DNA of 64,000 nucleotides, taken from an uncultured Candidatus Peribacteria bacterium. Lineage in GTDB: Bacteria; Patescibacteriota; Gracilibacteria; Peribacterales; Peribacteraceae. Numbering within the stretch: the first letter of the stretch is position 1; each line of letters opens with the position of its first letter. Where the stretch lies: positions 25,287 through 89,286 of the forward strand of contig CAZWES010000001.1 in NCBI GenBank assembly GCA_964632395.1, in the 5' to 3' direction. The notes beneath the pieces are model-generated. The model saw nothing but the letters and a program-made list of their open reading frames with translations, was not told where the DNA came from and made no database searches. This document shows positions 23,869 to 63,840 of the stretch, piece by piece. A program made the translations under genes and the position numbers.

Positions 23869-24025
23869 CAGTTAAATGAATACAGGCGTTTTTTACGCCC
23901 AAGAGCCCCGCCTCCTGCAGGAGGACATCTGTGGGGAGCAATTGAGGACGTAGGCAGTATTCATTGGCTGCATGATACGCGCCGGGTCTCTGCCGTCAAG
24001 ACAAGTAAAGGTGTCATGGAACTAC

Positions 24026-24123
24026 GTCTCTCGACTCGGCCGTGCTCTTCTCGAGCGAGAGAGCCCGTAGCGTAGCGGAGGGCGAACGAGTCGAGAGACG
24101 AGCACGGCCTCGCTCGAGAAGAG
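24026..24123. repeat. Composite X/Y repeat locus
   Basis: X 24026-24037, Y' (reverse complement of Y) 24045-24057, X' 24088-24099, Y 24111-24123. GCCGTGCTC / GAGCACGGC lie between them. Confidence 0.8.
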
Positions 24124-24128
24124 TGTGT

Positions 24129-34258: not shown

Positions 34259-34309
34259 ATCAGCATATTATAGCTTTTTTCTAAACTTGTGTCTATTTTC
34301 TGAGGCAAT

Positions 34310-36493: not shown

Positions 36494-36715
36494 TAATTTG
36501 GGTTCAGAGTAATCGCTTGATTATAGCAGAAAATGGGGGGTGGGGGTAGGGGGGAGAATGGGATTCGTATGTGGCAAAAACACCATCACGTGGTCAATTT
36601 TGGGGTAATTCCTCTTGCCAATAAGGAATACGTGGAGTACCGTGGTGACAGCAAGTAATTCCTTCCGCGTGGGGCTCCGTATAGGTTCCTCGTAAATAGC
36701 GCGGCGGGTTTTGCT

Positions 36716-37366: not shown

Positions 37367-37408
37367 ATCATATATCTTACATGTAACAGATATTTCGAAT
37401 TAGGCTCC

Positions 37409-49848: not shown

Positions 49849-50124
49849 ATGCCCTCAGAAAAGATTTACAGGCAGGCCTCGGAACTGAAGGCGCTTGGGA
49901 GCGTAAGGCGGCTGGAAATTCTCTCATTCCTAAAAAAGAAAAAATCTGCCGTGGTGGGGGATATTGCAGAGGCAATTAGAATTTCGCAGGAATCCGCATC
50001 ACAGCACCTCAGAATTTTGCGGCTTGTGGGGATCGTAACCTCAGTTCGGAGAGGAAAGAATGTTTCTTATCGCATCAGGATGGGGATTGCGGAGCCGGCG
50101 AGGGGGGTTGTAAGGGATTTGTGA
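49849..50124 (+). CDS. arsR: ArsR/SmtB-family transcriptional regulator
   Basis: LKALGSVRRLEILSFLKKKKSAVVGDIAEAIRISQESASQHLRILRLVGIVTSVRRGKNVSYRI. Confidence 0.8.
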   Translation: MPSEKIYRQASELKALGSVRRLEILSFLKKKKSAVVGDIAEAIRISQESASQHLRILRLVGIVTSVRRGKNVSYRIRMGIAEPARGVVRDL

Positions 50125-50170
50125 TTTGAGTTGAGCTGCAGTTTGTTTTTGTGCGCACGGAGGTTTTCAT

Positions 50171-50188
50171 GTTTTAATACGTTGAAAC
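50171..50188. repeat. 18-nt palindrome, degenerate solo copy (3' half of an E-type element)
   Basis: GTTTTAATACGTTGAAAC preceded by GGTTTTCAT and followed by CAAGCAG, as at the right end of E1. Confidence 0.7.
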
Positions 50189-50264
50189 CAAGCAGCAGTT
50201 CTACATTTGATGACTTGTGAGTAGCGTCGGTCGATTGTGTTCGTACACACACGTTTGTATTGTT

Positions 50265-50355
50265 GTTTTAAAACGTTAAAACAAACACGCCTGCGTACAA
50301 AATGCAAAAAAGCCCCGATTCCGTGGTCTGCTATTCGAGGTGGAAAGCAGAAAAG
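50265..50355. repeat. F-element, left copy (18-nt palindrome plus about 70-nt conserved tail)
   Basis: GTTTTAAAACGTTAAAACAAACACGCCTGCGTACAAAATGCAAAAAAGCCCCGATTCCGTGGTCTGCTATTCGAGGTGGAAAGCAG... A near-identical direct repeat lies at 52429-52517. Confidence 0.85.
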
Positions 50356-50409
50356 CGAGACCAATCATGCCAAATTTGTTCTACTATTGGTTTGTTTCGA
50401 TGTTTTTAC

Positions 50410-51459
50410 ATGGCAGGCTTGCATTGGACAAAGTTGAAATCGTGCATCAAACTATTAGCCGAATTAACCTTAACCAGCTCGAAAGTGCCAAAAGAGATCT
50501 TTCTTAAATTGGGCAGTGTCAAATATTCAGGAAAGTCCATAGGCGATGATATACGGGTTGAAATCGAAACAATGGGAGAACGCGTTGTAGTTGATAAGCA
50601 AATTAAAAGAGGAACGACAAAACGGATTAATAAAGACATTGTAAGATTTACCGTTGATCAAAATTCACTCACTCTGCCAATTACAGTCAGAATAATTGAG
50701 AAAGATATTGTGTTCAATGATGTCGGAGCCAAAAAAGTGAAGATAAAGGTGGATTTGTCGAATCAAGGGTCACAAAAAAGCACTCATCGAGTGGAAGTAT
50801 TTGAAAAACGCTGGAAGTATAAAAAACCAAAAGCTTTGTTTGATGTCACTTTTGAAGTGTTGGCTTCAGATATATTTCGATACATCGAAGAAATGGATGA
50901 AGGATTTTTGTTGGTAAAAAACGAAGCTGATAAGAAGAAGTCTTTGCCAGCGTTTCTTAAAGTCAAATACAATCGACGTGAAAATGAGCGTGAATATTTT
51001 ACCCTTCTCGAAGGGGTTTTGCAGGGGAAGACATTTTCCGTAAAAGCGAAGAGTGGTGGAAGCTCTCGTCTTATTGAGGGAAATCCTTACACCGGGCCGG
51101 TTCATATGACTTATTCAAAGTCTGCAAAGAAATTAACTGTTAAGGGCAGAAAATATAAAATCATTGAGGATCCGGCAAATTCTTGGAGAAAAGGTGTCTA
51201 TGATGTTGAAATCCCTGATCATCCACACATGATGCCAGAGGATTATTTGAACAAATCTTCGAAAGCAAAAGTTTGGTTTCATATAGGTCATGATCATAGG
51301 GATGAAGTGGCGAAGGAGAGGTACTTGCATACTGGTACGATGACTGCAGGATGTATGACGATGATTGAGTTGGAAAAATGGGATGAGATTTATAAAATTC
51401 TTATCAAAGCGCGGAAGGGCGATTCGATGAGTGTTGGTACTGTTGAGATCATAGATTGA
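50410..51459 (+). CDS. Candidate cell-wall-targeting effector with YkuD/Tlde1-like motif (copy 2)
   Basis: ...GVYDVEIPDHPH...KVWFHIGHDH...RYLHTGTMTAGCMTMIELEKW. Collinear with 42891-43868, with roughly half the aligned residues identical by eye. The start is uncertain: ATG at 50410, or GTG at 50484, which would mirror the copy-1 N-terminus. The ORF-track start at 50302 lies inside the F repeat. Confidence 0.55.
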   Translation: MAGLHWTKLKSCIKLLAELTLTSSKVPKEIFLKLGSVKYSGKSIGDDIRVEIETMGERVVVDKQIKRGTTKRINKDIVRFTVDQNSLTLPITVRIIEKDIVFNDVGAKKVKIKVDLSNQGSQKSTHRVEVFEKRWKYKKPKALFDVTFEVLASDIFRYIEEMDEGFLLVKNEADKKKSLPAFLKVKYNRRENEREYFTLLEGVLQGKTFSVKAKSGGSSRLIEGNPYTGPVHMTYSKSAKKLTVKGRKYKIIEDPANSWRKGVYDVEIPDHPHMMPEDYLNKSSKAKVWFHIGHDHRDEVAKERYLHTGTMTAGCMTMIELEKWDEIYKILIKARKGDSMSVGTVEIID

Positions 51460-51464
51460 TAATC

Positions 51465-52376
51465 ATGAAACGTACTTTGTTTGTCATATCCGGCATTATC
51501 CTTATTGGAGTAATGGTTTGTATCGCATTAATCTTTTTTGCCAATGGAGGAACATCAGGAAAAGATGGAAGACTCCGCGCTATAGGCGAGTTTGGCAACC
51601 TCAAAATCGGAGACAAATATTTCTATAAGGCTGGTGGTGATGTTGGTAATGCTTACGAAAAAATTCCTCCATCGAGATTTTATATTTATGTTCTACGGAA
51701 TGACTATAATTATAATGATATCTGTACTTATGAGTCATGTGGAATTATTGGTGGTACGGTCTCTCTTTTAAGGGGGTGGCTAATGGGCTACAAGCTTTCT
51801 CCTTATGAAGAGGAATTTGGTCTTGAATTAAACGACGCCGGAGAATTTCCGACTGGAGAATCGTCTCTGATTGTTGTCGCAGACGGCGATTCTAAAATTA
51901 GAGGAATACATCCAAACGCAAAAATGGATAATTTAATTAACATTTTAAAACTATATCCCGACCTGGTAGATTTTGATCTTCTGAGAGGGATGACGGAATT
52001 TGGACCGCTTGAAGTCGGCGCAGATTTTCCGGCCCATCTTATTCAGGAATTTGACGACCATATTTTTGCAGGGGAACCACAAAAGAAATTCACAGTGTAT
52101 TACATATGGAATAAACCGCGGGGACCCGGATGTAATTACTTTGAGTGCGGGTATCATCTCGATCTCATTTATTCATACGGAGGAGATTATTTAGATATCT
52201 GCCCCGATCGCGATGACGTGCTTCTGGAGCTTGGCATTAGCCCTTCACAGGTATCGCGCGGTGAGGCGACTCTTATGGTGATAACCGATTCCAAAAACAA
52301 AATAACAGGTATTCACCCCAATGTTTTGCTTAGAGATGTGGCTGGGATTTTGTTGCAATACGCTTTGGTGCGGTGA
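51465..52376 (+). CDS. Membrane-anchored protein with two tandem copies of the candidate immunity domain (copy 2)
   Basis: MKRTLFVISGIILIGVMVCIALIFF is a TM helix. Two repeats follow: FGNLKIGDK...CTYESC...LIVVADGDSKIRGIHP and FGPLEVGAD...CNYFEC...LMVITDSKNKITGIHP. The ATG is 5 nt after the upstream stop. Confidence 0.6.
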   Translation: MKRTLFVISGIILIGVMVCIALIFFANGGTSGKDGRLRAIGEFGNLKIGDKYFYKAGGDVGNAYEKIPPSRFYIYVLRNDYNYNDICTYESCGIIGGTVSLLRGWLMGYKLSPYEEEFGLELNDAGEFPTGESSLIVVADGDSKIRGIHPNAKMDNLINILKLYPDLVDFDLLRGMTEFGPLEVGADFPAHLIQEFDDHIFAGEPQKKFTVYYIWNKPRGPGCNYFECGYHLDLIYSYGGDYLDICPDRDDVLLELGISPSQVSRGEATLMVITDSKNKITGIHPNVLLRDVAGILLQYALVR

Positions 52377-52428
52377 AGCACTGGAAGAATTTTGTTTGGT
52401 CATCTTTAGCGTTAGTATTTGTTTCCAT

Positions 52429-52530
52429 GTATTAATACGTTAAAACAAGCGCGCCTGCGTACAAAATACAAAAAGCCCCGATTCCGTGGTCTGCTATCCG
52501 AGGTGGAAAGCAGAGAGGTGGAATCGGGGC
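52429..52530. repeat. F-element, right copy, extended into a terminator hairpin
   Basis: GTATTAATACGTTAAAACAAGCGCGCCTGCGTACAAAATACAAAAAGCCCCGATTCCGTGGTCTGCTATCCGAGGTGGAAAGCAGAGAGGTGGAATCGGGGC. Confidence 0.85.
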
Positions 52531-52533
52531 GGG
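52470..52533 (-). terminator. Rho-independent terminator of the his operon (inside the right F-element)
   Basis: Minus strand: GCCCCGATTCC - 34-nt structured loop - GGAATCGGGGC followed by TTTTTGTATTTTG. It lies 15 nt after the hisIE stop. Confidence 0.6.
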
Positions 52534-52547
52534 TGTGATGAGCATAC

Positions 52548-53153
52548 TCAGCGTTTTCTGCTCTTCAATTCTTCTGCTACTTCAAAAAGATCAATTTGGG
52601 AACTCTGTAGAAAAACCAGTGCGTGATACAGTAAATCAGCAGCTTCTTCCCTAGTTCTCAGGTTCCCCTCGCTTTTAGTGGCACAAATAAGTTCTTTTGC
52701 CTCCTCAATTACCTTTGCTCCGCACACTTCGATCCCGCCATCAAGCAGTCGTTTTGTGTACGAACTCTTTTGATCTGCATTTCTGCGCTGCCGGATTGTT
52801 TCAATTAGTTCCCCGATTGTTTCGAGTGGGAGTTCAGGAGCGTCAAAGCATGAAATATTGTTTTTGTGACAAGTTGGACCCTTTGGGATTGCCCGAATAA
52901 GGAGAGTATCGCCATCGCAGTCTAAGTAAATGGAATCGAACCTTAGAGTGTTTCCCGATTTCTCCCCCTTCTCCCACAGTCTTTTCTTCGATCTGCTGTA
53001 AAAGGTCACATTACTCGAATCAATGGTCTTTTTCAGTGCTTCCTCGTTCATATAGCCGAGCATAAGGATGTGACCTGTTCTAGCATCCTGAATGATTGCA
53101 GGAACGAGCCCATCAGGGTTTTTTTGCCAGTTAATGGCATCAAGATCAATCAT
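52548..53153 (-). CDS. hisI: Bifunctional phosphoribosyl-AMP cyclohydrolase / phosphoribosyl-ATP pyrophosphatase
   Basis: GLVPAIIQDARTGHILMLGYMNEEAL...YLDCDGDTLLIRA is the HisI part. The C-terminal EEAKELI...EEAADLLYHALVFL is HisE. Confidence 0.85.
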   Translation of the reverse strand: MIDLDAINWQKNPDGLVPAIIQDARTGHILMLGYMNEEALKKTIDSSNVTFYSRSKKRLWEKGEKSGNTLRFDSIYLDCDGDTLLIRAIPKGPTCHKNNISCFDAPELPLETIGELIETIRQRRNADQKSSYTKRLLDGGIEVCGAKVIEEAKELICATKSEGNLRTREEAADLLYHALVFLQSSQIDLFEVAEELKSRKR

Positions 53154-54631
53154 AATCTGACGGGGAAAGAGGCTTTTTGTAGCGCTTCCTTCACGTCCCG
53201 GATGCGAAATGTTTCAAAGTGAAACACGCTCGCAGCAAGTACAGCATCAGCTTTCCCCTCCTGAACTGCATTGACAAATGTTTGTAGAGACCCTGCTCCA
53301 CCGGAGGCAATGATTGGAACACGAACGTGCTTTTTAATCTCTCGCAGAAGCTCCGTGTCGAATCCTTCACCGGTTCCATCACGATCATAAGATGTTACAA
53401 GCAATTCTCCTGCTCCTCGTTCAACAGCTTCCTGTGCCCATTCAATTGCATCAAGCCCCGTATCTTCACGACCTCCTCGAACAAGCACAGTCCAGTTTTT
53501 TCCTTTGCGTTTCGCATCAATTGCGCAAACCGTATTTGCACTTCCAAGCTGTTCCGCCATTTTCGAAAGAAGTTCTGGTCTTTTCACGGCGGCAGAGTTT
53601 ACAGAAACTTTATCTGCCCCTGCTTCGAGTAGTCGTCTGGCGTCGTCAACGGAGCGAATGCCTCCACCAATTGTAAGTGGTATATTCACGCTGTCTGCAA
53701 CACTGGATGCAAGATCATATACGGCTTCCCGATTATCAAGTGTTGCGGTGATATCGAGAAATACCAGTTCGTCTGCACCTTCATCGCAGTATCGTTTGGC
53801 AAGCTCCACGGGATCACCGGCATCGCGTAGATTCTGAAACGATGCGCCTTTCACAACACGGCCATTCGTCACATCCAAACAAGGAATAATGCGAATAGCA
53901 GGATCAGAGCTTGCGGAGATGAAAAGTTCTGAGAGTGATGTTGCATCATTCAGTAGCGACTTACCGACGACAGCCGCAGCGCAGCCTTGTGATCGAAGTG
54001 TACGGATATCACTTCCACCTCGTATTCCGCCACTCGCAATAACTCTGACTGATGGAAACTTTGACTGCACATTCTTGTACAAGCGGAGACTTGGACCTGA
54101 TTCCATTCCGTCATACTCGATATCTGTGATGAGCACAGTGTCAATGTCCATTTGTACGATACGCCGCAAGGCATCATTGAGACTCACATTTGTTCCATCA
54201 CGCCAACCCCGAATTTTCACTTCATCTCCCCATACATCGAGTGCAGCAATGAAGCGATTTCTACCAAAAAGCGTAACGGCATTTCGCAACACATCAGGGC
54301 TCGTGAAGATGAGCGTTCCGATAACAATTTGTTCTGCGCCCGCATCGAGAAGCATCTGAATATCTTTGAGAGAGCGAATGCCACCACCCGTCTGAACCGA
54401 TAATCCTGTCTCTGCGACAATGTTTTGTATAAGCTGCAAAAAGGCAGAACCAACCTTCCCTTTTTTCGCTCCTGAAAGATTCACAAGGTGAATTCGTTCT
54501 GCACCTTCCTCTTTGTATCGCTTGGCAATCGTGAGTGGATCATCTTTCCACGTTGTTTTGCGCGTGAAGTCACCCTGTGCAAGTCGCACAGTTTTTCCAG
54601 CCAGCACGTCAATGGCGGGGATTACTTGCAT
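53150..54631 (-). CDS. hisAF: Fused HisA-HisF protein (ProFAR isomerase plus IGP synthase cyclase subunit)
   Basis: N-terminal half: MQVIPAIDVLAGKTVRLAQGDF...VQTGGGIRS...ASGGIRG (HisA). C-terminal half: RIIPCLDVTNGRVVKG...IGGGIRS...IASGGAG (HisF). It is one uninterrupted 493-aa ORF. Confidence 0.85.
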   Translation of the reverse strand: MQVIPAIDVLAGKTVRLAQGDFTRKTTWKDDPLTIAKRYKEEGAERIHLVNLSGAKKGKVGSAFLQLIQNIVAETGLSVQTGGGIRSLKDIQMLLDAGAEQIVIGTLIFTSPDVLRNAVTLFGRNRFIAALDVWGDEVKIRGWRDGTNVSLNDALRRIVQMDIDTVLITDIEYDGMESGPSLRLYKNVQSKFPSVRVIASGGIRGGSDIRTLRSQGCAAAVVGKSLLNDATSLSELFISASSDPAIRIIPCLDVTNGRVVKGASFQNLRDAGDPVELAKRYCDEGADELVFLDITATLDNREAVYDLASSVADSVNIPLTIGGGIRSVDDARRLLEAGADKVSVNSAAVKRPELLSKMAEQLGSANTVCAIDAKRKGKNWTVLVRGGREDTGLDAIEWAQEAVERGAGELLVTSYDRDGTGEGFDTELLREIKKHVRVPIIASGGAGSLQTFVNAVQEGKADAVLAASVFHFETFRIRDVKEALQKASFPVRL

Positions 54632-55179
54632 AATTTAGCGAAAGAAAGAAGATAACGGTCTCCAATCTCTCCCGATTTCTCCGGGTGCCACTGCACACCG
54701 AAGAAGTTTTCTTGTCGAACACCAGCGCATAACGATTCACCGTACTGCACAGTCATTGTGATGATATTCGGATCATCCGGTACACAGGTATAACCGTGTA
54801 CAAAATACGCATAGTCGCCCGTTGAGAGCTTGTTCCATCCCATGTGTGGCTTGGTTATGGTGTTTGGAAGTTCCTGTACTTCTCCTTTGATAATTCCCAG
54901 ACATTCGGTGGGACCCTCCTCCGATTTTTCAAAAAGAAGTTGCATACCGAGGCAGAGGCCAAGAAATGGTTTTTTGAACTTGCGGAGCGGCTCGACCAAT
55001 CCTCGATCTTGTAAACGATTCATTGCTGCTTTTGCTGCACCTGCTCCAGGCACGATCAGCCCTGAAAGCTCTTTAAGCTCTCCTGCCTTTTCAACAATTC
55101 GTGAAGAGATATCAAGGCGGGTGAGCGCACGTTGTACGCTTCCTACGTTGCCTGCGCTGTAACGGAGAATGCCTATCAT
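54622..55179 (-). CDS. hisH: IGP synthase glutamine amidotransferase subunit
   Basis: MIGILRYSAGNVGSV...PFLGLCLGMQLL...GVQWHPEKS is the triad pattern. The start is adjacent to the hisB stop. Confidence 0.85.
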   Translation of the reverse strand: MIGILRYSAGNVGSVQRALTRLDISSRIVEKAGELKELSGLIVPGAGAAKAAMNRLQDRGLVEPLRKFKKPFLGLCLGMQLLFEKSEEGPTECLGIIKGEVQELPNTITKPHMGWNKLSTGDYAYFVHGYTCVPDDPNIITMTVQYGESLCAGVRQENFFGVQWHPEKSGEIGDRYLLSFAKLCK

Positions 55180-56216
55180 AGTGAGCCTTTGGTAGAAGGA
55201 ATGCCCTGCTCGTGCGGGCATGAGCGAAAAGCAGATCGCAGAGCGCGACCTAACCCCTTAAAAAGAGCTTCAATTTTGTGGTGCTCGTTCTCACCTCTGC
55301 GCAGTGTCATGTGCAAATTACATTTAAGCGTCTGTGCAAGTGACTCGAAGAAGTGTGCTACGAGTTCTGTTGGAAGTTCCCCCACGTATTCACGCTTGAA
55401 TTTGCCATCGAAAATGAAGTAGGGACGGCCAGAGAGATCAACAACAATTTCTGCGAGTACTTCATCCATAGGCACCCAAAAGCCATATCGTTCAATCCTG
55501 CGTTTGTCACCCAGAGCTTTTGAAAGCACCAAGCCAAGCACAATACCAATATCTTCCACAGTGTGGTGTTCATCCACTTGCAGGTCTCCGTCTGCTTTTA
55601 GTGTGAGATCAATGAGAGAGTGCTTTGTAAAGAGTTCGATCATGTGATCGAGAAACCCAATGCCTGTGCTTACATCGGATTTTCCTGACCCATCGAGGTT
55701 CACAAATGATTCGATCTTCGTTTCTTTCGTTTCACGCTTCACAGAAGCGAACCGAGGAAACTGCGTATTTGTTTGCATCTTCACAAAGCACACACCTATG
55801 TTTTCTGCAAACTCACGATCAGTCTTACGATCTCCAATCGTCAGTGATTGTCCGAGATCAATATCATTCTCATCGAGGAATTGTTTCACCAAACCAATCT
55901 TTGGCTTCCGACATTCACAATTATTACTCTGCGTGTGCGGACAGATGAAAATTTGATCAAAAACGATTCCTTCCTCCAATAATTCTGAAAGGAGCCCGCC
56001 TTGTGGAGGCTCAAAGTCTTCCCGTGGGAAGCTCTCGGCACCTAAACCATCTTGATTACTGACCATCACAAGAGAAAACCCTTGTTCTTTGAGTGCCTGT
56101 AATCCTTCAATGACGTTGGGAAGAACACGAAATTTCTCCATAGAATCAACCTGTTTTGTCTCTGGCGGCTCCCAGATCAGAACGCCGTCACGGTCAATGA
56201 ATGCTACTTTTTTCAT
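55176..56216 (-). CDS. hisB: Bifunctional histidinol-phosphatase / imidazoleglycerol-phosphate dehydratase
   Basis: N-terminal HAD motif VAFIDRDGVLI and C-terminal IGPD motifs (IGFLDHM, HHTVEDIGI, ENEHHKIEA). Confidence 0.85.
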   Translation of the reverse strand: MKKVAFIDRDGVLIWEPPETKQVDSMEKFRVLPNVIEGLQALKEQGFSLVMVSNQDGLGAESFPREDFEPPQGGLLSELLEEGIVFDQIFICPHTQSNNCECRKPKIGLVKQFLDENDIDLGQSLTIGDRKTDREFAENIGVCFVKMQTNTQFPRFASVKRETKETKIESFVNLDGSGKSDVSTGIGFLDHMIELFTKHSLIDLTLKADGDLQVDEHHTVEDIGIVLGLVLSKALGDKRRIERYGFWVPMDEVLAEIVVDLSGRPYFIFDGKFKREYVGELPTELVAHFFESLAQTLKCNLHMTLRRGENEHHKIEALFKGLGRALRSAFRSCPHEQGIPSTKGSL

Positions 56217-57286
56217 GAAAGTAATGAGGAAAGAGAAGCAATAAGAAGATCGTTTTCTTTCTGTGTTCCGGTAGAAATGCGGAGGCAGTTTTCAAGTTGT
56301 GGCTTTGACCCGAAATTTCGCACAATGATTTTCTTCTCATTGCGCAATCTCTCGTACATATCATTGCTGCTTATTTTTTCGGGGAGGCGCATAAGAAAGA
56401 AATTTGCATCGCTCGGATATACAGTACATCCGAGCCCCATACAGGCTTCTTCCACACGTTTTCTTTTTTTGAGGAGTAGCCGTACATTTTTTTCCATTTG
56501 CTCTCTTTTTCCCCACAATACCACCCCCATTCTCTGAGTGAGCAGATTTACGTTGTACGGTGGCTTAGTTTTGAATAGCTGCTCTGTGACACGTGAGTCT
56601 GCAATGCCATAGCCAAGACGTATTCCCGCAGCGCCAAAAGCCTTGCTGAATGTACGCATAACGAGTAGGTTTTTCGCCCCATTCTTCACAAGCTCGATGG
56701 CAGATGGAATACCATTGGCATCTGCAAATTCTCCGTACGCTTCGTCTATTACGATGAGACCTTTAAATTCATTTACAATCTTATCGAGCATCTCTATGGG
56801 GATACTGTTGCCTGTAGGATTGTTGGGGCTACAGAGGAAGAGAATATCTGCCTCAGAAAATCTGGCGGAGAGTTGTTCTTCATTAATCCCGAATGAAGAT
56901 GTGAGCGGAATGCTCACGTATGGTGATCCACATATATCTGCGCAGACTCTATACATTCCATAGGTTGGAGCAACACTAAGAACGCTATTCTTTGGTCGTA
57001 CGAATGTGCGTATAGCAAGGTCAATCAATTCATCTGTTCCATTGGTCATAATGATTTGCTCTCTTCGAATGCCATAGAATGCTGCGATCTCATCACGAAG
57101 AACATCAGTCGTTGGATCAGAGTAGCGATTGATGCCTTTTATTGAAGGGGGAGGGATATCAATTGTGAATGGAGACTCATTTGCATCAAGGTATATCCAT
57201 CCTTCATCCTTGCAGATGTGGCGTGCACAAACGTAAGGTCGAATCGCCTGAGTGGAAGCCGGTATTGGTGGAGATTGAAATGTCAT
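56213..57286 (-). CDS. hisC: Histidinol-phosphate aminotransferase
   Basis: YLDANESPF...LRTFSKAFGAAGIRLGY carries the PLP lysine. Confidence 0.85.
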   Translation of the reverse strand: MTFQSPPIPASTQAIRPYVCARHICKDEGWIYLDANESPFTIDIPPPSIKGINRYSDPTTDVLRDEIAAFYGIRREQIIMTNGTDELIDLAIRTFVRPKNSVLSVAPTYGMYRVCADICGSPYVSIPLTSSFGINEEQLSARFSEADILFLCSPNNPTGNSIPIEMLDKIVNEFKGLIVIDEAYGEFADANGIPSAIELVKNGAKNLLVMRTFSKAFGAAGIRLGYGIADSRVTEQLFKTKPPYNVNLLTQRMGVVLWGKREQMEKNVRLLLKKRKRVEEACMGLGCTVYPSDANFFLMRLPEKISSNDMYERLRNEKKIIVRNFGSKPQLENCLRISTGTQKENDLLIASLSSLLS

Positions 57287-58575
57287 GGCTTGGCAAAGCG
57301 AATTTCCACTGCTCTTGCGTGGGCTTCGAGGCCCTCGGCGCGGGCAAGGATGGTAGCTGCGATTTTGAGATTGTTCAGTCCGATTTCATTGAGTTTCTGA
57401 ATGGAGAGCTGTTTCTGAAATATGCGCACAGAAACACCGCTCTGTGTCCGCGCTGTTCCAGATGTAGGCAGTACGTGGTTTGTTCCAGAACAGTAATCAC
57501 CTACAGTTTCAGGAGTGTATGGACCAACGAATACCGATCCGGCATTCTGGATGCTTTCTAAAACAGTGTCGGTGTTATTCGTCTGTAGACTCAGGTGTTC
57601 TGGCGCGTAGGAGTTACTCAGGTCAATTGCCTGCTCAAGCGTTTCCGTAATGATTATGCAACTTCGCTCAAGTGACTCAGAGGCAATGTCTTTTCGCGGC
57701 AGTGTGAGAAGCTGCTCTCGTAGTTCTTGCAGAACCGACTTTGCAATTGCTTCGGATGTTGTAAGCAGAACTACCTGTGCACCCATACCGTGTTCTGCTT
57801 GAGAGAGCATATCAGCAGCGATACAGCGAGGGTTTGCAGATGTATCTGCAATGATGAGTAGTTCCGAAGGACCAGCGAGCATCTCAATATCCGCGCCGCC
57901 CGGATCAATACTTACTAATGCTTTTGCGGCTGTCACATAGGCGTTTCCGGGTCCGGCAATCTTATCCACCTTCGGTATCGTTTCCGTACCGTACGCGAGT
58001 GCAGCTATTGCCTGCGCTCCACCAACTGAATAGATTTCATCCAGCCCCAGAAGGTTGGCAGCGGCGTAAATGACATTTGCATCCTTCTGTTCCTTCTGTG
58101 GTGGTGTGCAGAGGGCAATGCTCTTCACTCCTGCAAGCTGCGCCGGTACTGCCAACATGAGGAGCGTTGAGAAAAGCGGTGCCGTTCCCCCCGGTATGTA
58201 TAAGCCTACCCGTTCAATGGGACGAATGAGATATTTACAGGAAACACCGGCAGTCGTTTCAACCTCTTTCATTTCTGATTGGGACTGCCCATGAAACGTG
58301 CGTATATTTTCGATGGAAAATCGCATACTTTCTATTAGCTCCTCAGACACACGACTTGCCGATGCACGGATCACTTCCTCGGGCACACGAAGTTTTCCAG
58401 GTTCAAAATCGTCAAATTTCTTCGAGTACGTGCGGATTGCTTCATCTCCTTCTTTTTGCACTGCTTCAATGATTGGACGCACTGTATCAATGTATTGTGA
58501 AAGGTCGCGCGTAGGACGTTTCAGTGATTCCAATACAACTTCTATTCCCGTCGTTGATAGTGAAAGCATTTTCAT
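57283..58575 (-). CDS. hisD: Histidinol dehydrogenase
   Basis: ...AGPSELLIIAD...QAEHG...NHVLPTSGTAR. Start at MKMLSLS, 7 nt after the hisG stop. Confidence 0.9.
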   Translation of the reverse strand: MKMLSLSTTGIEVVLESLKRPTRDLSQYIDTVRPIIEAVQKEGDEAIRTYSKKFDDFEPGKLRVPEEVIRASASRVSEELIESMRFSIENIRTFHGQSQSEMKEVETTAGVSCKYLIRPIERVGLYIPGGTAPLFSTLLMLAVPAQLAGVKSIALCTPPQKEQKDANVIYAAANLLGLDEIYSVGGAQAIAALAYGTETIPKVDKIAGPGNAYVTAAKALVSIDPGGADIEMLAGPSELLIIADTSANPRCIAADMLSQAEHGMGAQVVLLTTSEAIAKSVLQELREQLLTLPRKDIASESLERSCIIITETLEQAIDLSNSYAPEHLSLQTNNTDTVLESIQNAGSVFVGPYTPETVGDYCSGTNHVLPTSGTARTQSGVSVRIFQKQLSIQKLNEIGLNNLKIAATILARAEGLEAHARAVEIRFAKP

Positions 58576-58582
58576 AATCACT

Positions 58583-59449
58583 TTATTGGATAAGTTTTTC
58601 AATTGGAGATACAAGAATGCCCGTTGCACCGCATTTCTTGAGCTTTTCGACTACATCCCAGAAATCCTCTTCAAGAACGACCGAGTGAACAGCGATCATT
58701 TCCGGCTTTGCAAGTTTCATCGTGGTGGGACTGTCAAAACCCGGCACAAGTTTCATAACCTTTTTTAGAGATTTTTCCGGCAGATTGAACATGATGTATT
58801 TATATTTTCGTGCATCCTGTATACCTCTTGCGCGTAAGAGCAATTTATCAATCAATTGTTTCTTCCTTTCCGGTGCACTTTTGCTGCCAATGAGTATAGC
58901 CTTACATTCCATCACATTCTCGATGATGCGCAGCCTGTTTGTACGGAGTGTACTGCCTGTGGAAACGAGATCGCAGATTGCATCTGCCACTTTCAAAGCA
59001 GGTGCGATCTCCACGCACCCCTTGAGAACAATCACATCTGCGTCAATCTTCTTTTGTTTGAGATATTTCCTGAGTAATTGAGGATATGATGTTGCAATCT
59101 TTCCTCCTTTGAGGTCAGATAAGACATCGTAGGATGAGGTCTCTGGTACTGCAATAGATAGCGAACAATAACCGAAATCAAGGGGTATAAGTCGTTCTGT
59201 CTTTGCGCCATTTTCTTCAAGCAGGTTGCTTCCAACGATTCCGAGGTCGGCAACTCCATCCTGCACGTATTCCGGTATGTCGTCATCCCGCAGGAATAAA
59301 ATATCAACATCAATGTTGCGACAACGCGTAAAGAGCCTGTTCTGATATGTTTCAAATTCAAGCCCCATTGATTTTAGGAGCGCAATTGACCCCTCGGACA
59401 GTCGTCCTGATTGTTGTACTGCTATGCGTAGGTTTCCATTTAATTGCAT
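58583..59449 (-). CDS. hisG: ATP phosphoribosyltransferase, long form
   Basis: LRIAVQQSGRLSEGS...DLVSTGSTLRTN..., plus a C-terminal regulatory domain. 288 aa. Confidence 0.85.
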   Translation of the reverse strand: MQLNGNLRIAVQQSGRLSEGSIALLKSMGLEFETYQNRLFTRCRNIDVDILFLRDDDIPEYVQDGVADLGIVGSNLLEENGAKTERLIPLDFGYCSLSIAVPETSSYDVLSDLKGGKIATSYPQLLRKYLKQKKIDADVIVLKGCVEIAPALKVADAICDLVSTGSTLRTNRLRIIENVMECKAILIGSKSAPERKKQLIDKLLLRARGIQDARKYKYIMFNLPEKSLKKVMKLVPGFDSPTTMKLAKPEMIAVHSVVLEEDFWDVVEKLKKCGATGILVSPIEKLIQ

Positions 59450-59468
59450 GGTAATTTGTGGGAAATAT

Positions 59469-59496
59469 AAAAAAACCTCCTCACCGCGAGGAGGGG
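59469..59496 (-). terminator. Terminator-like hairpin between the YerC-like gene and hisG
   Basis: Minus strand: CCTCCTC GCGGT GAGGAGG followed by TTTTTTT. It lies 16 nt after the yerC-like stop and 20 nt before the hisG ATG. Confidence 0.55.
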
Positions 59497-59511
59497 ATGA
59501 TGTGGCAATTG

Positions 59512-59865
59512 TTATTTTTTCGAACCACGCCGTCCTCTCCCCGCGGGAGTACTTGCGTGGTGGCGATGATCCTTACCCAGCGCTTTACGATATCCACCTT
59601 CCCCGTTATTCAAAAACCCAGCTATGCGAGTTATCGTGGCAGTGCTTGCTCCGGTTTTCCGTGCAACCTCGCGATAGGGGAGTCCGCTTAGAAGTAGTCC
59701 TGCAACTTCCAGTCTTTCGCTCAAGGCCTGCATTTCGCTCAATGTTGCAACATCCCGCAGGAAATTTGCTGTTTCCCTTATTGTGCGGCATCTGACAAAA
59801 GCTGCGCACAGCGCACGTAGTTCAGGACTTTTTCGCCAGGTGTTTTCGCGGAAGCTGCGTTTCAT
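59512..59865 (-). CDS. yerC: YerC/YecD-family TrpR-like DNA-binding protein
   Basis: ...LRDVATLSEMQALSERLEVAGLLLSGLPYREVARKTGASTATITRIAGFLNNGEGGY matches the TrpR-related YerC/YecD pattern. Confidence 0.75.
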   Translation of the reverse strand: MKRSFRENTWRKSPELRALCAAFVRCRTIRETANFLRDVATLSEMQALSERLEVAGLLLSGLPYREVARKTGASTATITRIAGFLNNGEGGYRKALGKDHRHHASTPAGRGRRGSKK

Positions 59866-59900
59866 GGGGGCAATATATAGTGGGCGGGGGTGTGTGTCAA
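59866..59900 (-). promoter_or_regulatory. Sigma-70-like promoter positioned for a leaderless yerC-his transcript
   Basis: Minus strand: TTGACA (59900-59895), 17-nt spacer, TATATT (59877-59872), 6 nt, ATG (59865). The -35 lies 1 nt from an 18-nt palindrome. Confidence 0.5.
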
Positions 59901-59901
59901 T

Positions 59902-59986
59902 GTTTTAATACGTTAAAACAAGAGGCAAGGAAAAGCAGCCTTAACGTGGAGTTTAGGCTTGTTTTGGTGTTTTAATACGCTAAAAC
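59902..59986. repeat. E-element copy 1 (two 18-nt palindromes flanking a conserved imperfect hairpin)
   Basis: GTTTTAATACGTTAAAAC AAGAGGCAAGGAAAAGCAGCCTTAACGTGGAGTTTAGGCTTGTTTTGGT GTTTTAATACGCTAAAAC. Confidence 0.9.
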
Positions 59987-60164
59987 CAAGCAGATTTAAT
60001 CAAGATTCACAGAACTTTCTCCATCCATACTGTTTCCAGTCCTCCAAGCTCCCCGCGTTTATATTCGCGATAGCCCCTGATGATTATTGATGACTCTGTA
60101 GCTCAAGGATAATATTTCTTATATTTCTTGCAATGATTTTCTTAGAGGAATGTGGGGTAAGAAT

Positions 60165-60250
60165 GTTTTAATACGTTAAAACTAGGGGCGAGGAAAAGCA
60201 TCTGTAAAGTGGGATTTTGAGCTTGTTTTCGTGTTTTAATACGCTAAAAC
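60165..60250. repeat. E-element copy 2
   Basis: GTTTTAATACGTTAAAAC TAGGGGCGAGGAAAAGCATCTGTAAAGTGGGATTTTGAGCTTGTTTTCGT GTTTTAATACGCTAAAAC. Confidence 0.9.
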
Positions 60251-60285
60251 TACACAGCTGTGCAAAACTTCAGAGTAGAAGCCTC

Positions 60286-61431
60286 CTATTCAATCTTCAG
60301 TATTTTACAGTCCACAAGATATGGCGAATTAAATGCGGTCGTTTCACCTGCCTTTTTGCCGGGCACTGGGAATAAGCGGGCAGACAGTGGTTTGTCCAAT
60401 TTGATTGCCAAAGTCGCTATGTCCAGAAGTGTTGCTTCAATCTTTTCTGTCGGTGTATCTCCTGGGATCGGGACAGTATCCAGTCCGCAACCGCAAACCG
60501 CTGAATATAAGAGCAGGTTAGAGATGTTATAAGTTTCCTCATTTGCCCCTGCTGCAAGCCCTCGATCTTCACAGACTGGAAGCATAAGACCGGAGTAACC
60601 GCATTGTTTTACTGATAGTCTCTTTAGTACACGTGTGATCAAGGCAGAAATTGTAAGCGTCCCCTGGTTTCCGAATTTGCCAAATCCTAGCTTTTCATAG
60701 GCAAAAGCAACACTTTCCTGCTCTTCAAGGCCTGGATTTAGTGAAACATCTATTCCGTTATATTTAATATTGGAGTCCTTTGAGATTTGCTGAGATAGGT
60801 CTGCTATCTTTTTGGTTTCTTCCTCGAATATTTGTTTTAGGTTTTGTTCGGCCTCTGTGAGATTATTGGATTTTGAAAATGCTTTCATGGCCAAATCTCC
60901 ACATTCCAGGCCAATACTGAAAGCGTCTTCACCTTCATGAAATCCTGTGGGAAAGAAGGGGATGCCTGCTTTGCAGTTTGCAGAAGCGCAAAACCTGAAA
61001 TTCCCGTAACCGTTTTCTGTTTCTTCGGCGATTCTTTTAATAACCTGCGCAGCAACTTTGGCATTTTCAAAGTTTATTCCGCTGTCTTTATCACCTATTT
61101 TCGCTGAGCACGAAATTCGGGAAGTTACCTTATTGAATTCTGGTACAAGTTTTATTCTCTCAGGAGTGTCTGCAAATCCAACATTAAAGAAACTCACATC
61201 GAGTTCTTCACATACATGTTCTATTTTTTGAATTGCACTGACGATTTCTGCATCAGGGAGACTGCCAAGATATTCTTCCCAGGAATTTGTAGATATCCTT
61301 GTCGTCTGAACTTCGTAGCTTGATTTTTCGAAAACATTTTTTGCTACCTGGTTAAAATCAGCAGCTTTCCTGATTCTATCTTCTTCATGCGATTTTAGAG
61401 ATATGCCTGTTGTTATGGTTCTGATTTTCAT
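60286..61431 (-). CDS. UPF0210/DUF711-family protein
   Basis: The N-terminal MKIRTITTGISL is characteristic of DUF711. 381 aa. Confidence 0.55.
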   Translation of the reverse strand: MKIRTITTGISLKSHEEDRIRKAADFNQVAKNVFEKSSYEVQTTRISTNSWEEYLGSLPDAEIVSAIQKIEHVCEELDVSFFNVGFADTPERIKLVPEFNKVTSRISCSAKIGDKDSGINFENAKVAAQVIKRIAEETENGYGNFRFCASANCKAGIPFFPTGFHEGEDAFSIGLECGDLAMKAFSKSNNLTEAEQNLKQIFEEETKKIADLSQQISKDSNIKYNGIDVSLNPGLEEQESVAFAYEKLGFGKFGNQGTLTISALITRVLKRLSVKQCGYSGLMLPVCEDRGLAAGANEETYNISNLLLYSAVCGCGLDTVPIPGDTPTEKIEATLLDIATLAIKLDKPLSARLFPVPGKKAGETTAFNSPYLVDCKILKIE

Positions 61432-61524
61432 ATTTTATCCGGGTAGGTTCTAGATCATAGTACCAAATAAGGTGGGACACGTGAAATTTTTGTGCTGTAT
61501 GTAAAAGAGCATGCTTGTTTTCAT

Positions 61525-61610
61525 GTTTTAATACGTTAAAACAAAGGGCAAGGAAAAGCAGCTTTAAAGTGAAGTTTGGAGCTTGTTTTGGTGTTTTAAT
61601 ACGTTAAAAC
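61525..61610. repeat. E-element copy 3
   Basis: GTTTTAATACGTTAAAAC AAAGGGCAAGGAAAAGCAGCTTTAAAGTGAAGTTTGGAGCTTGTTTTGGT GTTTTAATACGTTAAAAC, preceded by GCTTGTTTTCAT. Confidence 0.9.
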
Positions 61611-61679
61611 TAAGCCAAGCTGCATGAAAACAAAAAGATAGCTCCACTCCTATATCCGGTTTGACGCTATAATTCCAAC

Positions 61680-62570
61680 ATGCTTGATACTAGTTTGGTA
61701 CACAGCATTCTCACAGAGTCCTTTCCTTCACTTGAGGTTGCAGAAATTGTCGCGCTGGGGGAAGGGTGGCACATTGATGCGTTTGCTGTGAATGAGGAAT
61801 ACGTCTTTCGGTTTCCGAAGACGGAGGAAGCCGTTGTACATCTTCGAAAGGAAATATGCATGCTTCCAAAACTCCGTTCCGCCCTACCACTCGCCATTCC
61901 TGATTTTACATTCGTCGGCAAACCATCTCAGTCATTCCCGCGACCGTTTGTAGGATACAAAATGATCGATGGGGAGATTCTGACGAAAGAATCATTTGCC
62001 AGTCTCTCCGACGCAGCAAAGAAAAGCATCGCCAAGCAGGTCGCGGATTTTGTGATGGCAATGCACAGCTTTCCTTCCCCTGAGGCAAAGAAGTGCGGCA
62101 TAGAAACATTGGATGCGCGTGACGACTACACGGAATTCCTGCGAGAAATAAGGGAGAAGGCGCTTCCGAAGCTTTCAGGTGCAGAGCAGGAAGAAGTTGT
62201 CTGTCTTTTTGAATGGTTCCTCGAGGAAGAGAAAAATTTTGCATATGAACCAATTCTTCGCCACGCGGATTTGGGGCTCTGCCATCTGCTTAGTGACGGG
62301 CAAAAACTGATAGGTGTAATCGACTTCGGAGATATGACAATCGGCGATCCGGAGTATGAGCTTCATTTCCTTTATGAGGGCTGTGGAAGAGTTTTCATCG
62401 AGCTCATCCTGCAGTATCTGAATCATCCTGACCCCGATCGTCTATTGCAAAAGCTGCAGTTCTATTCCAAGATGAATTTTCTGGATGACGCACTGCATGG
62501 GCCAACTGATGGGTGGAAAGAGTGGGGATGGAAAGAGTTCAGAAGAGCATTGGAATCTCCCACTGAGTAG
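61680..62570 (+). CDS. Aminoglycoside-phosphotransferase-fold (APH/choline-kinase family) kinase
   Basis: ILRHADLGLCHLL is the catalytic-loop HxD and VIDFGDMTIGDP is DFG-like. Confidence 0.75.
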   Translation: MLDTSLVHSILTESFPSLEVAEIVALGEGWHIDAFAVNEEYVFRFPKTEEAVVHLRKEICMLPKLRSALPLAIPDFTFVGKPSQSFPRPFVGYKMIDGEILTKESFASLSDAAKKSIAKQVADFVMAMHSFPSPEAKKCGIETLDARDDYTEFLREIREKALPKLSGAEQEEVVCLFEWFLEEEKNFAYEPILRHADLGLCHLLSDGQKLIGVIDFGDMTIGDPEYELHFLYEGCGRVFIELILQYLNHPDPDRLLQKLQFYSKMNFLDDALHGPTDGWKEWGWKEFRRALESPTE

Positions 62571-62590
62571 TTGTTGGCATAAGTACTGGT

Positions 62591-62677
62591 GTTTTAATAC
62601 GTTAAAACAGTGGGGCAAGGAAAAGCAGCTTTAAAGTGGGGTTTGGAGCTTGTTTTCGTATTTTAATACGTTAAAAC
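62591..62677. repeat. E-element copy 4
   Basis: GTTTTAATACGTTAAAAC AGTGGGGCAAGGAAAAGCAGCTTTAAAGTGGGGTTTGGAGCTTGTTTTCGT ATTTTAATACGTTAAAAC. Confidence 0.9.
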
Positions 62678-62724
62678 AGACCAAAGTCTCTAAAAGCTCA
62701 GAAAAATACAGAGATGGAGCCTCG

Positions 62725-63840
62725 TCACGTAACAACCTCCTCCAATCTTCCATCATCGACCGTCTTTTTTATCTCCCCCGCAATCCTCTCCCCATAACTC
62801 ACTGGCTCCCCATGCAAGTACATCGAGTAGGGAGTGAACTTTGTTCCCGGCGACCCCGGAATCCTCAAACTAACATCAAAAATAACAATATCCTCTTTGC
62901 CCTCTTCTGCAACAACTGCGCCCTGCAAAGCGAATGGGCCGATGATGCCTTTGTCATCATGTTTTTTAGTTGCAGCCACAAACTTTTCACCCAGGTCAAA
63001 TGCTTTTTCCAGAATGGATTCTTTTACGGTGACGGCGATGTGACCAGTCTCAATCATCTTCAGGTCAACGTGCTTGAGTGCCTTAGCTTGTTCGGCTGCA
63101 GTCATTTTCAAAAACCCATCAAGATTAGTTTGTCTTCTTGTATCTGTTCCCATCAACTCAAGTTCGTTTGAAAGAGGGGAGTAGAAGAAGTTGAAGTTAA
63201 CCGGAGCGCCGACTACAAATTCCTCAATCACGGCATCACGCCAACTTGAATCCACTTTTCCATCTGCCTCAAGTTTTGATCCTTCTTCTTCATATTCATC
63301 TTTACTTGAGACAACAAAGAAGGCGCGCTCATAACTTCGTGCTTTCTCACTTGCCTTGACAATTATCGGCCTGTCGATCTCTTCCGGCTTTTCAAAAATC
63401 TTTGGAGCTCTGATGCCAGCGTCATGCAACAAATGATACTGGTTGTAAGGCTGGTCGCGTTCCTCCAGTTTTATGTACGAGCGGTTGCCGAAGATCGGTA
63501 CATTGAAATCATTTTCAACTCGTGAATAATCGCTGAAGTAAACCCAAAAGTAGCGATTGTGGATAAAAATTGTATTCAGAGATCTTAAGTTTTCCTGAAC
63601 TTCATCATCAAGAACGTTTTCGAATGTTTCAACTGGTATCACTTCATCAACACACCCTTTCCCGTCACGAGCCTTGTAATACGTATCGTAAGTTTTGTTT
63701 CTGCCTTTTCGCGCTACGCATACAGTCTTAAAGTCAAACTTCTTTGCGCCATGGCAAACATCAAGTGCGCTGTGTCCGCCAAGGACGCCAATTGAGATCT
63801 TATTTGTGTCGTAGCCTTTGAGGAGTTCTTGGGGGGTCAT
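62725..63840 (-). CDS. purP: FAICAR synthetase PurP (archaeal-type, ATP-grasp)
   Basis: ISIGVLGGHSALDVCHGAKKFDFKTVCVARKGRNKTY parallels the PurP N-terminus (I.t.GSHSAL.i..GAK.eGF.T). 371 aa. Confidence 0.75.
   Translation of the reverse strand: MTPQELLKGYDTNKISIGVLGGHSALDVCHGAKKFDFKTVCVARKGRNKTYDTYYKARDGKGCVDEVIPVETFENVLDDEVQENLRSLNTIFIHNRYFWVYFSDYSRVENDFNVPIFGNRSYIKLEERDQPYNQYHLLHDAGIRAPKIFEKPEEIDRPIIVKASEKARSYERAFFVVSSKDEYEEEGSKLEADGKVDSSWRDAVIEEFVVGAPVNFNFFYSPLSNELELMGTDTRRQTNLDGFLKMTAAEQAKALKHVDLKMIETGHIAVTVKESILEKAFDLGEKFVAATKKHDDKGIIGPFALQGAVVAEEGKEDIVIFDVSLRIPGSPGTKFTPYSMYLHGEPVSYGERIAGEIKKTVDDGRLEEVVT

Follow-up and report, generated by a model that had tools for sequence, protein, structure and literature searches.

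The window analysed here, a stretch of 64,000 nucleotides on a contig from an uncultured Candidatus Peribacteria bacterium, carries between 50.1 and 62.7 kb 11 copies of an 18-nt palindrome, GTTTTAATACGTTAAAAC, distributed around the operon for histidine synthesis (his) and around yerC, the gene at its head. We identify this palindrome as a predicted operator of HisR, the repressor encoded by yerC. The most probable explanation of its multiplicity is that an ancestrally single operator was amplified, as part of larger modules, by recombination, repair or insertion events acting locally, in the gene-flux hotspot that surrounds the his operon. The original prediction for this DNA had considered either a recombination-assembled island with a structure-forming site at its junctions or, as an alternative, a regulon under one palindrome-binding regulator. 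Comparative evidence supports the existence of such a regulator, and its gene lies inside the cluster.

The palindrome clusters around the his operon

The search of the window with up to three mismatches to GTTTTAATACGTTAAAAC recovered the 11 copies listed in the original prediction, all on the plus strand (Table 1) and each with zero or one mismatch, a narrower range than the zero to two that had been given. All have the palindromic form GTTTTA-ATACGT-TAAAAC. The number expected by chance is 0.01, and none of 100 shuffled sequences reached 11 matches. At the same tolerance there is no copy in positions 1-50170, as had been claimed. L001, a JGI metagenome contig of the same locus, extends 7.4 kb beyond the window end, or 8.7 kb beyond the last copy, and adds none. 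The copy count covers these 71.4 kb, i.e., the window and the L001 extension. A scan for the arms only (GTTTTA-N6-TAAAAC, with up to two arm mismatches) gave 18 matches within 50.1-62.7 kb vs 3 outside, the latter at chance level. The clustering stands up to a statistical test: the copies form 7 independent units, all inside 12.5 kb of the 71.4 kb, and random placement would produce this with a probability of about 3e-5.

The locus was assembled identically in five independent samples, all of which carry the same strain. Because the copies differ from one another and the five independent assemblies agree, the array is no assembly artefact. Several short metagenome contigs of this and the closest species break at a palindrome or composite, or within about 100-300 nt of one (L070 at positions 1-22, and the ends of L003 and L074). 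This fits repeats that fragment assemblies, and further copies may be hidden in this way. The 18-mer had no match in viral contigs, and a larger unit that contains it (composite c3, described below) had none in plasmid and phage records.

The palindrome is a predicted HisR operator

HisR (YerC) is a repressor of the TrpR family with histidine as co-repressor, and its gene often comes first in the his operon and is autoregulated (Ashniev et al. 2022, PMC9413887). The YerC protein of the window matches the NCBIfam family TIGR02531 (YerC/YecD) with 64.9 bits against a cutoff of 42.2. Its best match in the PDB is 3G1C, the E. eligens HisR of the same study, with which it shares an identical KTGASTATI(T/S)R reading helix. 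The published consensus is cacTTTA-N6-TAAAgtg, and histidine-dependent binding was shown in vitro for the HisR of Ruminococcus gnavus (PMC9413887). The window palindrome, gTTTTA-ATACGT-TAAAAc, shares the TTTA-N6-TAAA core of this consensus. One copy touches the -35 box of the yerC promoter, which is the top promoter match within 49.7-63 kb (11/12).

The association with yerC extends to other genomes. Our genome search gathered exact matches to the bare 18-mer and found 55 single matches among 185,579 genomes. In 21 cases a YerC homologue (37-49% identity), mostly followed by hisG, is no more than about 110 nt away. The hosts of these 21 sites are Patescibacteria, Bdellovibrionota, Alphaproteobacteria and Gammaproteobacteria (at a finer level Peregrinibacteria/Peribacteria, Gracilibacteria, Magasanikbacteria, Paceibacterota, Steroidobacteraceae, other Gammaproteobacteria, Puniceispirillum and Bdellovibrionota). 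Two further matches precede a truncated yerC (L037) and hisS (L049), which brings the total to at least 23 of the 55, in four phyla. A metagenome search with a 28-nt extended form returned a single match, 30 nt from a yerC gene. The features of a HisR operator that can be read from sequence are all present: a palindrome of about 18-20 bp with the core, a cognate gene, and a conserved placement at the his promoter. We identify the palindrome as a predicted HisR operator because of its adjacency to yerC and his genes across genomes, the consensus core, the TIGR02531 and 3G1C matches of the protein, and the contact with the -35 box.

The operators of Firmicutes, Actinobacteria and Synergistetes are likewise TTTA-N6-TAAA palindromes directly 5' of hisR, which implies autoregulation, and their HisR has the same DNA-reading helix (PMC9413887). 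The window differs from these systems in several respects. The flanks of the core are gT...Ac instead of cac...gtg, and the host belongs to the candidate phyla radiation (CPR; Peribacteraceae), a group outside the coverage of that study. There are 11 sites (18 with the offset partners described below) in 12.5 kb, vs roughly 1-3 operator-bearing operons per genome (PMC9413887), and they are embedded in repeated modules of 86-95 nt, unlike published HisR operators. Two things are new: the hosts (CPR, together with Bdellovibrionota and some Proteobacteria that have this exact site) and the multiplication in one region of a pair of operators, as an 86-nt module.

Several loci of other groups have additional motifs. 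In Steroidobacteraceae and other Gammaproteobacteria (L009, L015, L018, L028, L039, L057) and in Puniceispirillum (L004, L019, L021), yerC-hisG loci carry the exact GTTTTAATACGYTAAAAC, a site unlike the proteobacterial HisR consensus TGTAnTArnnnnyTnTTACA (PMC9413887); in the gammaproteobacterial loci it adjoins a second box, GTTTAACGTAsTAAy. In alphaproteobacterial and Bdellovibrionales loci, GTTTCAGC directly precedes the site. Within the operon of the window, a strong terminator-like hairpin (CCTCCTCGCGGTGAGGAGG followed by TTTTTTT; 59476-59494, minus strand) lies between the yerC stop and the hisG start and may act as an attenuator or partial terminator.

A single site is the ancestral state

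We retrieved seven Peribacteraceae his loci (L060, L063, L064, L066, L068, L075 and L077) via HisG homologues, which are 67-84% identical to that of the window and place it in Candidatus Peribacteraceae (Peregrinibacteria, CPR). Each locus has one site or, in L060 and L063, one tandem pair. Nine related Peribacteraceae loci share the placement of the site: (A/G)TTGACAC follows it in L060, L064, L066, L068, L070, L075, L077 and L078, and in L063 the -35 box overlaps it. In the seven loci, a -10 box and the ATG come next. The arms of the site are invariant across the seven species, while the central six bases vary (ACACGA, GTACGA, TTGTGA, TCGTGA and others). In the window, the central six are ATACGT or a one-base variant of it in all 11 copies. 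Because this centre is shared by the 11 copies and variable between species, the copies derive from one another by common descent. These loci show that a single operator, as predicted from its sequence, is the ancestral state in Peribacteraceae. One of them, the metagenome-assembled genome L077, has two yerC-like genes of the Trp_repressor family (7441-7857 and 9555-9938), which flank hisS, and one recognisable operator.

The closest relative, L078/L079, has the same frame purP ... yerC-his ... PolX, and its YerC, PurP and PolX proteins are 89%, 92% and 90% identical to those of the window. It has five sites. Two of them, both perfect palindromes, form a composite at the yerC promoter (L078 2137-2222) that is orthologous to that of the window; a further solo site lies 36 nt 5' of this composite; and a pair of sites 95 nt apart, after the his terminator, is orthologous to the window copies at 50265 and 50171. 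The composite and the downstream pair are common to the two loci and are therefore older than the species split, whereas composites c2, c3 and c4 and copy 52429 are specific to the window relative to L078. In the orthologous non-coding DNA, 68 of 72 palindrome positions are identical, vs 194 of 263 other positions (Fisher p = 8e-5). The palindromes are thus better conserved than the surrounding DNA, and we conclude that the double operator and the downstream pair were kept by purifying selection, as expected for protein-binding sites. Because selection holds these four sites, HisR most likely binds them and would repress yerC-his when histidine is plentiful.

The start codon of yerC in L078 carries an insertion of about 135 nt (2226-2389), with 6-nt inverted ends (TACGGC...GCCGTA), an internal hairpin and an apparent duplication of (A)TGA. 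It turns a near-leaderless yerC into one with a leader of about 140 nt.

The palindromes are part of larger repeated units

Eight of the 11 copies pair into four composites of 86 nt (c1 to c4), each made of a palindrome, a conserved core of 49 or 50 nt and a second palindrome. The paired sites are 67-69 bp apart, which corresponds to about 6.5 helical turns. Across the four composites, 2 of 36 palindrome columns are variable, vs 16 of 51 core columns (p = 0.003). Apart from the four copies of the window, the 49-nt core occurs in L078/L079 alone; roughly 70 other loci lack it. It does not significantly resemble the region 5' of hisS in relatives. An 11-mer, TTTGGAGCTTG, is common to the core and to a hairpin repeat at 16.5 kb, a resemblance that is not significant (nhmmer E = 6.7).

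The original prediction had noticed TTGTTTT[CG][AG]T before several copies and suggested a longer unit. The extension is real and corresponds, at 7 of the 11 copies, to a second, overlapping site shifted by exactly 8 bp. The operators of E. coli TrpR are bound by tandem dimers at a spacing of 8 bp. The overlapping sites exactly 8 bp apart, GTTTTSRT-GTTTTAAT-ACGTTAAAAC, which occur at the 7 window copies and in L060, L017 and L059, resemble this arrangement. The TrpR half-site has a sequence unlike that of the window, and tandem binding by HisR is here predicted from the spacing, a tandem spacing of 8 bp being also mentioned in PMC9413887.

Two of the remaining copies, 50265 (siteA) and 52429, head direct repeats of about 95 nt that contain the site and part of the his-operon terminator, and flank two genes, orfA and orfB. 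The terminator hairpin (GCCCCGATTCC...GGAATCGGGGC, at about 52465-52530) has its T-run on the minus strand. The last copy, siteB, is a solo site with an offset partner.

The palindrome itself makes a weak hairpin, with an A/T-rich stem and -3.1 kcal/mol as DNA, which speaks against a structure-forming junction site. The whole 86-nt module folds into three hairpins, the central one being broken in c2, and some copies reach z-scores of -2 to -2.8.

Gene gain and loss at the repeats

Comparison with relatives shows indels at several of these repeats. L078 has the empty site of orfA/orfB: window positions 52415-52539 and 50163-50355 both align to the continuous segment 4569-4790 of L078. A segment of about 95 nt, from the terminator loop through siteA, is duplicated around the 2.05-kb insert, which has a GC content of 0.39-0.41; this is an insertion with a target duplication. 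A crossover inside the palindrome was considered for this event and is not established, since the homology may run about 15 nt past the site and its other end lies in the terminator loop.

The 178-bp segment at 59987-60164, which had been taken for an orphan, contains the relic of a GNAT acetyltransferase gene. In L060, an intact GNAT gene lies between yerC and a DUF711 gene that is 88% identical to the one in the window. The order DUF711-GNAT-yerC in L060 implies that DUF711 and GNAT are native neighbours of yerC. The relic matches residues 67-90 of the L060 protein (tblastn 79% identity, E 4e-8; blastn 81% over 54 nt). Composite c2 takes the place of the 5' part of the gene and so is not a simple interruption. 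Likewise, where L060 has tRNA_SAD and hisS beside yerC (L064, L075 and L077 have only hisS there), the window has the distal part of c1 in their place. In L078, an ABC exporter is found where the window has the kinase, DUF711 and GNAT genes, arsR is absent, and a distant hisI/hisG pair takes the place of the his genes that lie between yerC and the terminator.

The region is therefore a hotspot of gene flux, with operator-bearing repeats at its junctions, and not an island of foreign cassettes. The partition into blocks made in the original prediction is correct, except for the supposed orphan, and the repeats do coincide with synteny breakpoints and indels (orfA/orfB, the GNAT relic, and the arsR, APH and ABC genes). 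The horizontally assembled island fails as worded. The his operon, which had been thought acquired, is native: its GC content of 0.463 equals the background, and relatives carry the operon in similar form. The DUF711 block is not an acquisition either, given its ortholog upstream of yerC in L060. Nor does the region have a recombinase: no tyrosine or serine recombinase and no Phage_integrase domain was found by Pfam in the 71 kb examined (window open reading frames [ORFs] of at least 150 aa and the genes past the window end). The scan covered all such ORFs except three that longer genes overlap (34221-34904, 49018-49515 and 62650-63171), and the middle his genes were identified by Pfam matches on L001.

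Probable amplification of an operator and alternative explanations

In the scenario that we consider probable, the ancestor would have had one operator directly 5' of the -35 box of a near-leaderless yerC-his promoter, often with an overlapping site offset by 8 bp. The sub-lineage of the window and L078 would have acquired the double operator, i.e., the 86-nt module with its two sites 68 bp apart, at yerC, and the pair of sites after the his terminator. In the window organism, site-bearing segments would have been copied further, always nearby and in the same orientation, leaving three extra modules that bracket DUF711, the kinase gene and the GNAT relic, and one duplication of about 95 nt that flanks the two-gene insert. 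The copying would have occurred by local recombination, repair or insertion, with the operator repeats as portable homology, and probably involved no dedicated cassette system.

Several observations weigh against this scenario. The homology of the four composites is confined between the outer palindrome edges, with unrelated flanks, and such exact ends are better predicted by a discrete element or a site-directed process than by random segmental duplication. All 7 independent units have the same orientation (a chance of 1 in 64), which would also fit a strand-specific mobile element. Random duplication explains neither the ends nor the shared orientation, and this keeps a discrete element alive as an explanation. 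In the pair 50265/52429, the palindrome is no better conserved than its flank. No regulatory target is obvious for composites c2 and c4 and copy 52429, which are located at gene 3' ends. Finally, the copy count does not extend to the rest of the genome, which may have further copies.

The extra pairs could have been kept for work that HisR does, as an adaptive expansion of its regulon or an operator array, by controlling DUF711, the kinase, purP or orfA/orfB, by acting as roadblocks or insulators, or by forming a local sink for HisR. This is possible, if unlikely. The palindromes are much better conserved than the core in the four composites, and also at orthologous sites across species, and there is a site in every intergenic gap between 50124 and 62725 and in no gap outside. 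The product of purP recycles 5-aminoimidazole-4-carboxamide ribonucleotide (AICAR), a by-product of histidine synthesis, so that co-control of purP with histidine synthesis would make sense. Moreover, a site accompanies hisS in L049, and in L060 and L064 hisS and yerC have a common control region. Against this, c2, c4 and 52429 are at gene 3' ends, and c3 is about 58 nt 5' of the -10 box of the kinase gene and 94 nt from the ATG of DUF711, and does not overlap a core promoter. Indeed, the only recognisable core promoter overlapped by any copy is that of yerC. The DUF711 ortholog of L060 has no site, the spacing of about 6.5 turns gives poor phasing for a small loop, and known HisR regulons have 1-3 operons (PMC9413887).

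Somewhat less probable is a small non-autonomous mobile element (REPIN-, PATE- or MITE-like) whose hairpin ends are HisR operators by coincidence, copied in one strand orientation by a single-strand (HUH/Y1) transposase; we regard this as distinctly unlikely. The unit is discrete, with both ends at palindromes in all copies and no homology outside, all copies are on one strand, and the module folds as three hairpins. The window also encodes a RAYT-like Y1 transposase, the sole HUH enzyme found (22390-23022, plus strand; Pfam Y1_Tnp), and the different insertion of about 135 nt at the yerC start of L078 tells that small insertions do occur in the lineage. Against this, the copies are restricted to 12.5 kb beside hisR in the 71 kb examined, and the transposase gene has no copy of the palindrome near it, even with two arm mismatches allowed. 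Its score for NF047646 (REP-associated tyrosine transposase), 72 bits, falls short of the cutoff of 80. The window has a separate family of dispersed GC-rich repeats, with one inverted pair about 1 kb 3' of this gene. The ends of c1 to c4 show no conserved target sequence and no target duplication, c2 replaces the 5' part of GNAT, and the hairpins are weak. An operator conserved across phyla is also an unlikely coincidence for the recognition site of a transposase. A MITE in the strict sense was rejected: its terminal inverted repeats would be trivial because the ends are palindromic, c1 to c4 lack target duplications, and c2 is a replacement.

Between these two alternatives in probability stands a bolder idea that we hold to be doubtful: the 86-nt module would be a self-propagating unit, copied nearby via break repair on its operator ends or by a single-strand transposase, which plants pairs of HisR sites at gene boundaries, reshapes gene order and wires DUF711, the orphan kinase and purP to histidine control. 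If true, a reduced CPR genome would offer a bacterial parallel to the growth of regulons by way of transposable elements. A literature search on operator-carrying repeat elements in bacteria returned nothing relevant.

Two further explanations are very improbable. An integron-like array of cassettes (an attC cluster without integrase) would account for the repeat-block-repeat layout in one orientation, for a short non-coding "cassette", and for the variation of gene content between repeats among relatives, and the inner halves TTAAAAC...GTTTTAA do have the AAC/GTT triplets of attC. These halves share only the triplets and do not fit RYYYAAC/GTTRRRY, and no integrase or other tyrosine or serine recombinase was found in the 71 kb examined. 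The blocks include a native operon of 7 kb and genes on both strands, the "empty cassette" is the native GNAT relic, DUF711 is a native neighbour, and the site is already explained by HisR. A structured RNA, such as a multi-copy small RNA or a riboswitch-like leader, or an intrinsic terminator is just as hard to credit. The modest folding of some copies (z-scores of -2 to -2.8) would be in line with it, but there is no Rfam match at E <= 1 in 49.7-63 kb (two tRNAs are the only matches at the gathering threshold in the window), and all copies keep to one strand, with neighbouring genes on either strand. No T-run follows the hairpins, a terminator scan finds none at the copies, and c2 has a broken central hairpin. 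A CRISPR array was rejected, since the 49-nt "spacer" is the same in all four units and no Cas domain appears in the Pfam scans.

Amplification of the HisR operator within its own neighbourhood thus remains the explanation that we favour, and it can be set beside other arrangements of repeated sites. REP/BIME sequences, REPINs with their RAYT and the Correia elements of Neisseria are intergenic palindromic repeats of about 100 nt that may carry protein-binding sites. Such families are dispersed over the whole genome, with copies in the tens to hundreds, and a RAYT gene has its own REPs on either side. The window resembles these in having a short intergenic palindromic repeat and a RAYT-like gene; it differs in that the repeat, within the 71 kb examined, is confined to the vicinity of a regulator gene and has a conserved operator at its ends. 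As in integron attC arrays and integrase-less clusters, repeats in the same orientation punctuate blocks of variable content, but there is no integrase and no attC core, and the blocks comprise native genes and a whole operon on both strands. The lac (O1-O3), gal and deo systems have several operators per operon, some of them downstream or far from the promoter. The position of siteA and siteB after the his terminator is similar, except that the operators of lac, gal and deo arose separately whereas those of the window are copies of one module. Looping of that type by a dimer of the TrpR type is not established.

These results extend the HisR system to Patescibacteria/CPR and Bdellovibrionota, and the identical 18-bp site in four phyla can help to annotate regulons in uncultured lineages. 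They also provide a concrete case of a repressor operator multiplied within a larger copied module, in one place only of the DNA examined, with one insertion whose empty site is kept in a relative. Should the extra copies bind HisR, they would make a natural experiment: in a very compact genome, they could show how genes are rewired or insulated when an operator is duplicated, and whether palindromes bound by a protein act as hotspots of gene gain and loss. Should they be inert, they would be a warning to check for a neighbouring regulator before calling palindromes at gene boundaries integron or mobile-element sites.

Genes and other features of the window

The features of the region are given in Table 1. 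Genes for EF-Ts, ribosomal protein S2, sortases and ATPases of type IV secretion mark the window as bacterial.

Table 1. Operator copies, repeated units and genes between 48 and 64 kb of the window.
Feature	Position	Strand	Remarks
18-nt palindrome (11 starts)	50171, 50265, 52429, 59902, 59969, 60165, 60233, 61525, 61593, 62591, 62660	+	
PolX-PHP polymerase gene	48009..49754	-	Conserved flank; comes directly after siteB in L078, with 90% protein identity
arsR-family regulator gene	49849..50124	+	No arsR at the corresponding position of L078
siteB	50163..50188	+	Solo predicted HisR site (50171-50188) with 8-bp-offset partner; orthologous to L078 4763-4780
Resident copy of the ~95-nt repeat	50265..50360	+	siteA (50265-50282) and distal half of the his terminator; aligns with L078 4590-4700, where siteA is at 4668-4685
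Inserted segment	50361..52414	+	orfA about 50410-51459 (alternative start 50302), orfB 51456-52376; GC 0.385 and 0.412
His-side copy of the ~95-nt repeat	52415..52539	+	Site 52429-52446 and complete his-operon terminator hairpin
his operon, hisG-D-C-B-H-AF-IE	52548..59449	-	Pfam HisG, HisIE; middle genes via Pfam on the identical L001 genes
yerC (HisR)	59512..59865	-	Pfam Trp_repressor E 1e-19; heads the his operon
yerC promoter	59872..59900	-	TTGACA-17-TATATT; ends 6 nt before the ATG (near-leaderless)
Proximal canonical HisR operator (predicted)	59902..59919	+	Touches the -35 box of the yerC promoter; perfect ortholog at L078 2205-2222
Composite c1	59902..59986	+	Proximal operator, 49-nt core, distal operator (59969-59986) with 8-bp-offset partner at 59961
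GNAT acetyltransferase relic	60004..60078	-	Last ~24 codons, inside the 178-bp segment
Composite c2	60165..60250	+	36 nt 3' of the DUF711 stop codon
DUF711 gene	60286..61431	-	Pfam E 3e-106; 88%-identical ortholog upstream of yerC in L060
Composite c3	61525..61610	+	Between divergent DUF711 (ATG 61431) and APH-fold kinase (ATG 61680)
APH(2'')-like kinase-fold gene	61680..62570	+	No close homologue; next best 41% identity
Composite c4	62591..62677	+	Between convergent kinase (stop 62570) and purP (stop 62725)
purP (formate-dependent FAICAR synthetase)	62725..63840	-	Conserved flank; 3' end 92% protein-identical in L078

The two genes of the insert, orfA and orfB, have no Pfam or NCBIfam family. 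The C-terminal motif of orfA (...HPH...WFHIGHD...HTGTMTAGCMTM) presumably recalls toxins of the L,D-transpeptidase type, and the N-terminus of orfB has a stretch that resembles a membrane anchor. On the other side of the cluster, past the window end (L001 5794-8707), a second purP paralog (33% identical) and a gene with an NYN domain adjoin purP. A phosphoribosyl pyrophosphate (PRPP) synthetase gene follows a gene for an M26-like peptidase on L001, which makes a small purine/PRPP cluster beside the his locus.

Other repeats are found far from the operators. GC-rich sequences able to form hairpins surround the RAYT-like ORF (22228-22297 and 24020-24130), and none is related to the HisR palindrome. 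The dispersed GC-rich repeat, GCTCTTCTCGAGCGAG, has 6 matches with up to three mismatches (16824, 24044, 24109, 30916, 31330 and 34994), vs 0.57 expected; with its inverted pair 3' of the RAYT-like gene, it is a candidate for the REP family that belongs to this gene. Near-perfect hairpins of about 110 nt, made of TTGGAGC / TTTGGAAT repeats and sharing 47 nt at 89% identity, lie at 16448-16561 and 20695-20805, just 5' of the genes for a class II ribonucleotide reductase and purB. Both contain the 11-mer TTTGGAGCTTG of the composite core, which is not a significant match. Just 5' of the ATG of the ribonucleotide reductase gene (16610-16670), a pair of inverted boxes, GCAATATCTTGTGC and ACAAGATATTGTGC, separated by about 31 nt, are candidate NrdR boxes. 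Elsewhere in the window, a terminase small-subunit ORF (5203-5658) and a pair of VirB4/TraC-like and VirD4-like ATPase genes with a DUF3800 gene in between (34310-39973) point to prophage or conjugative remnants.

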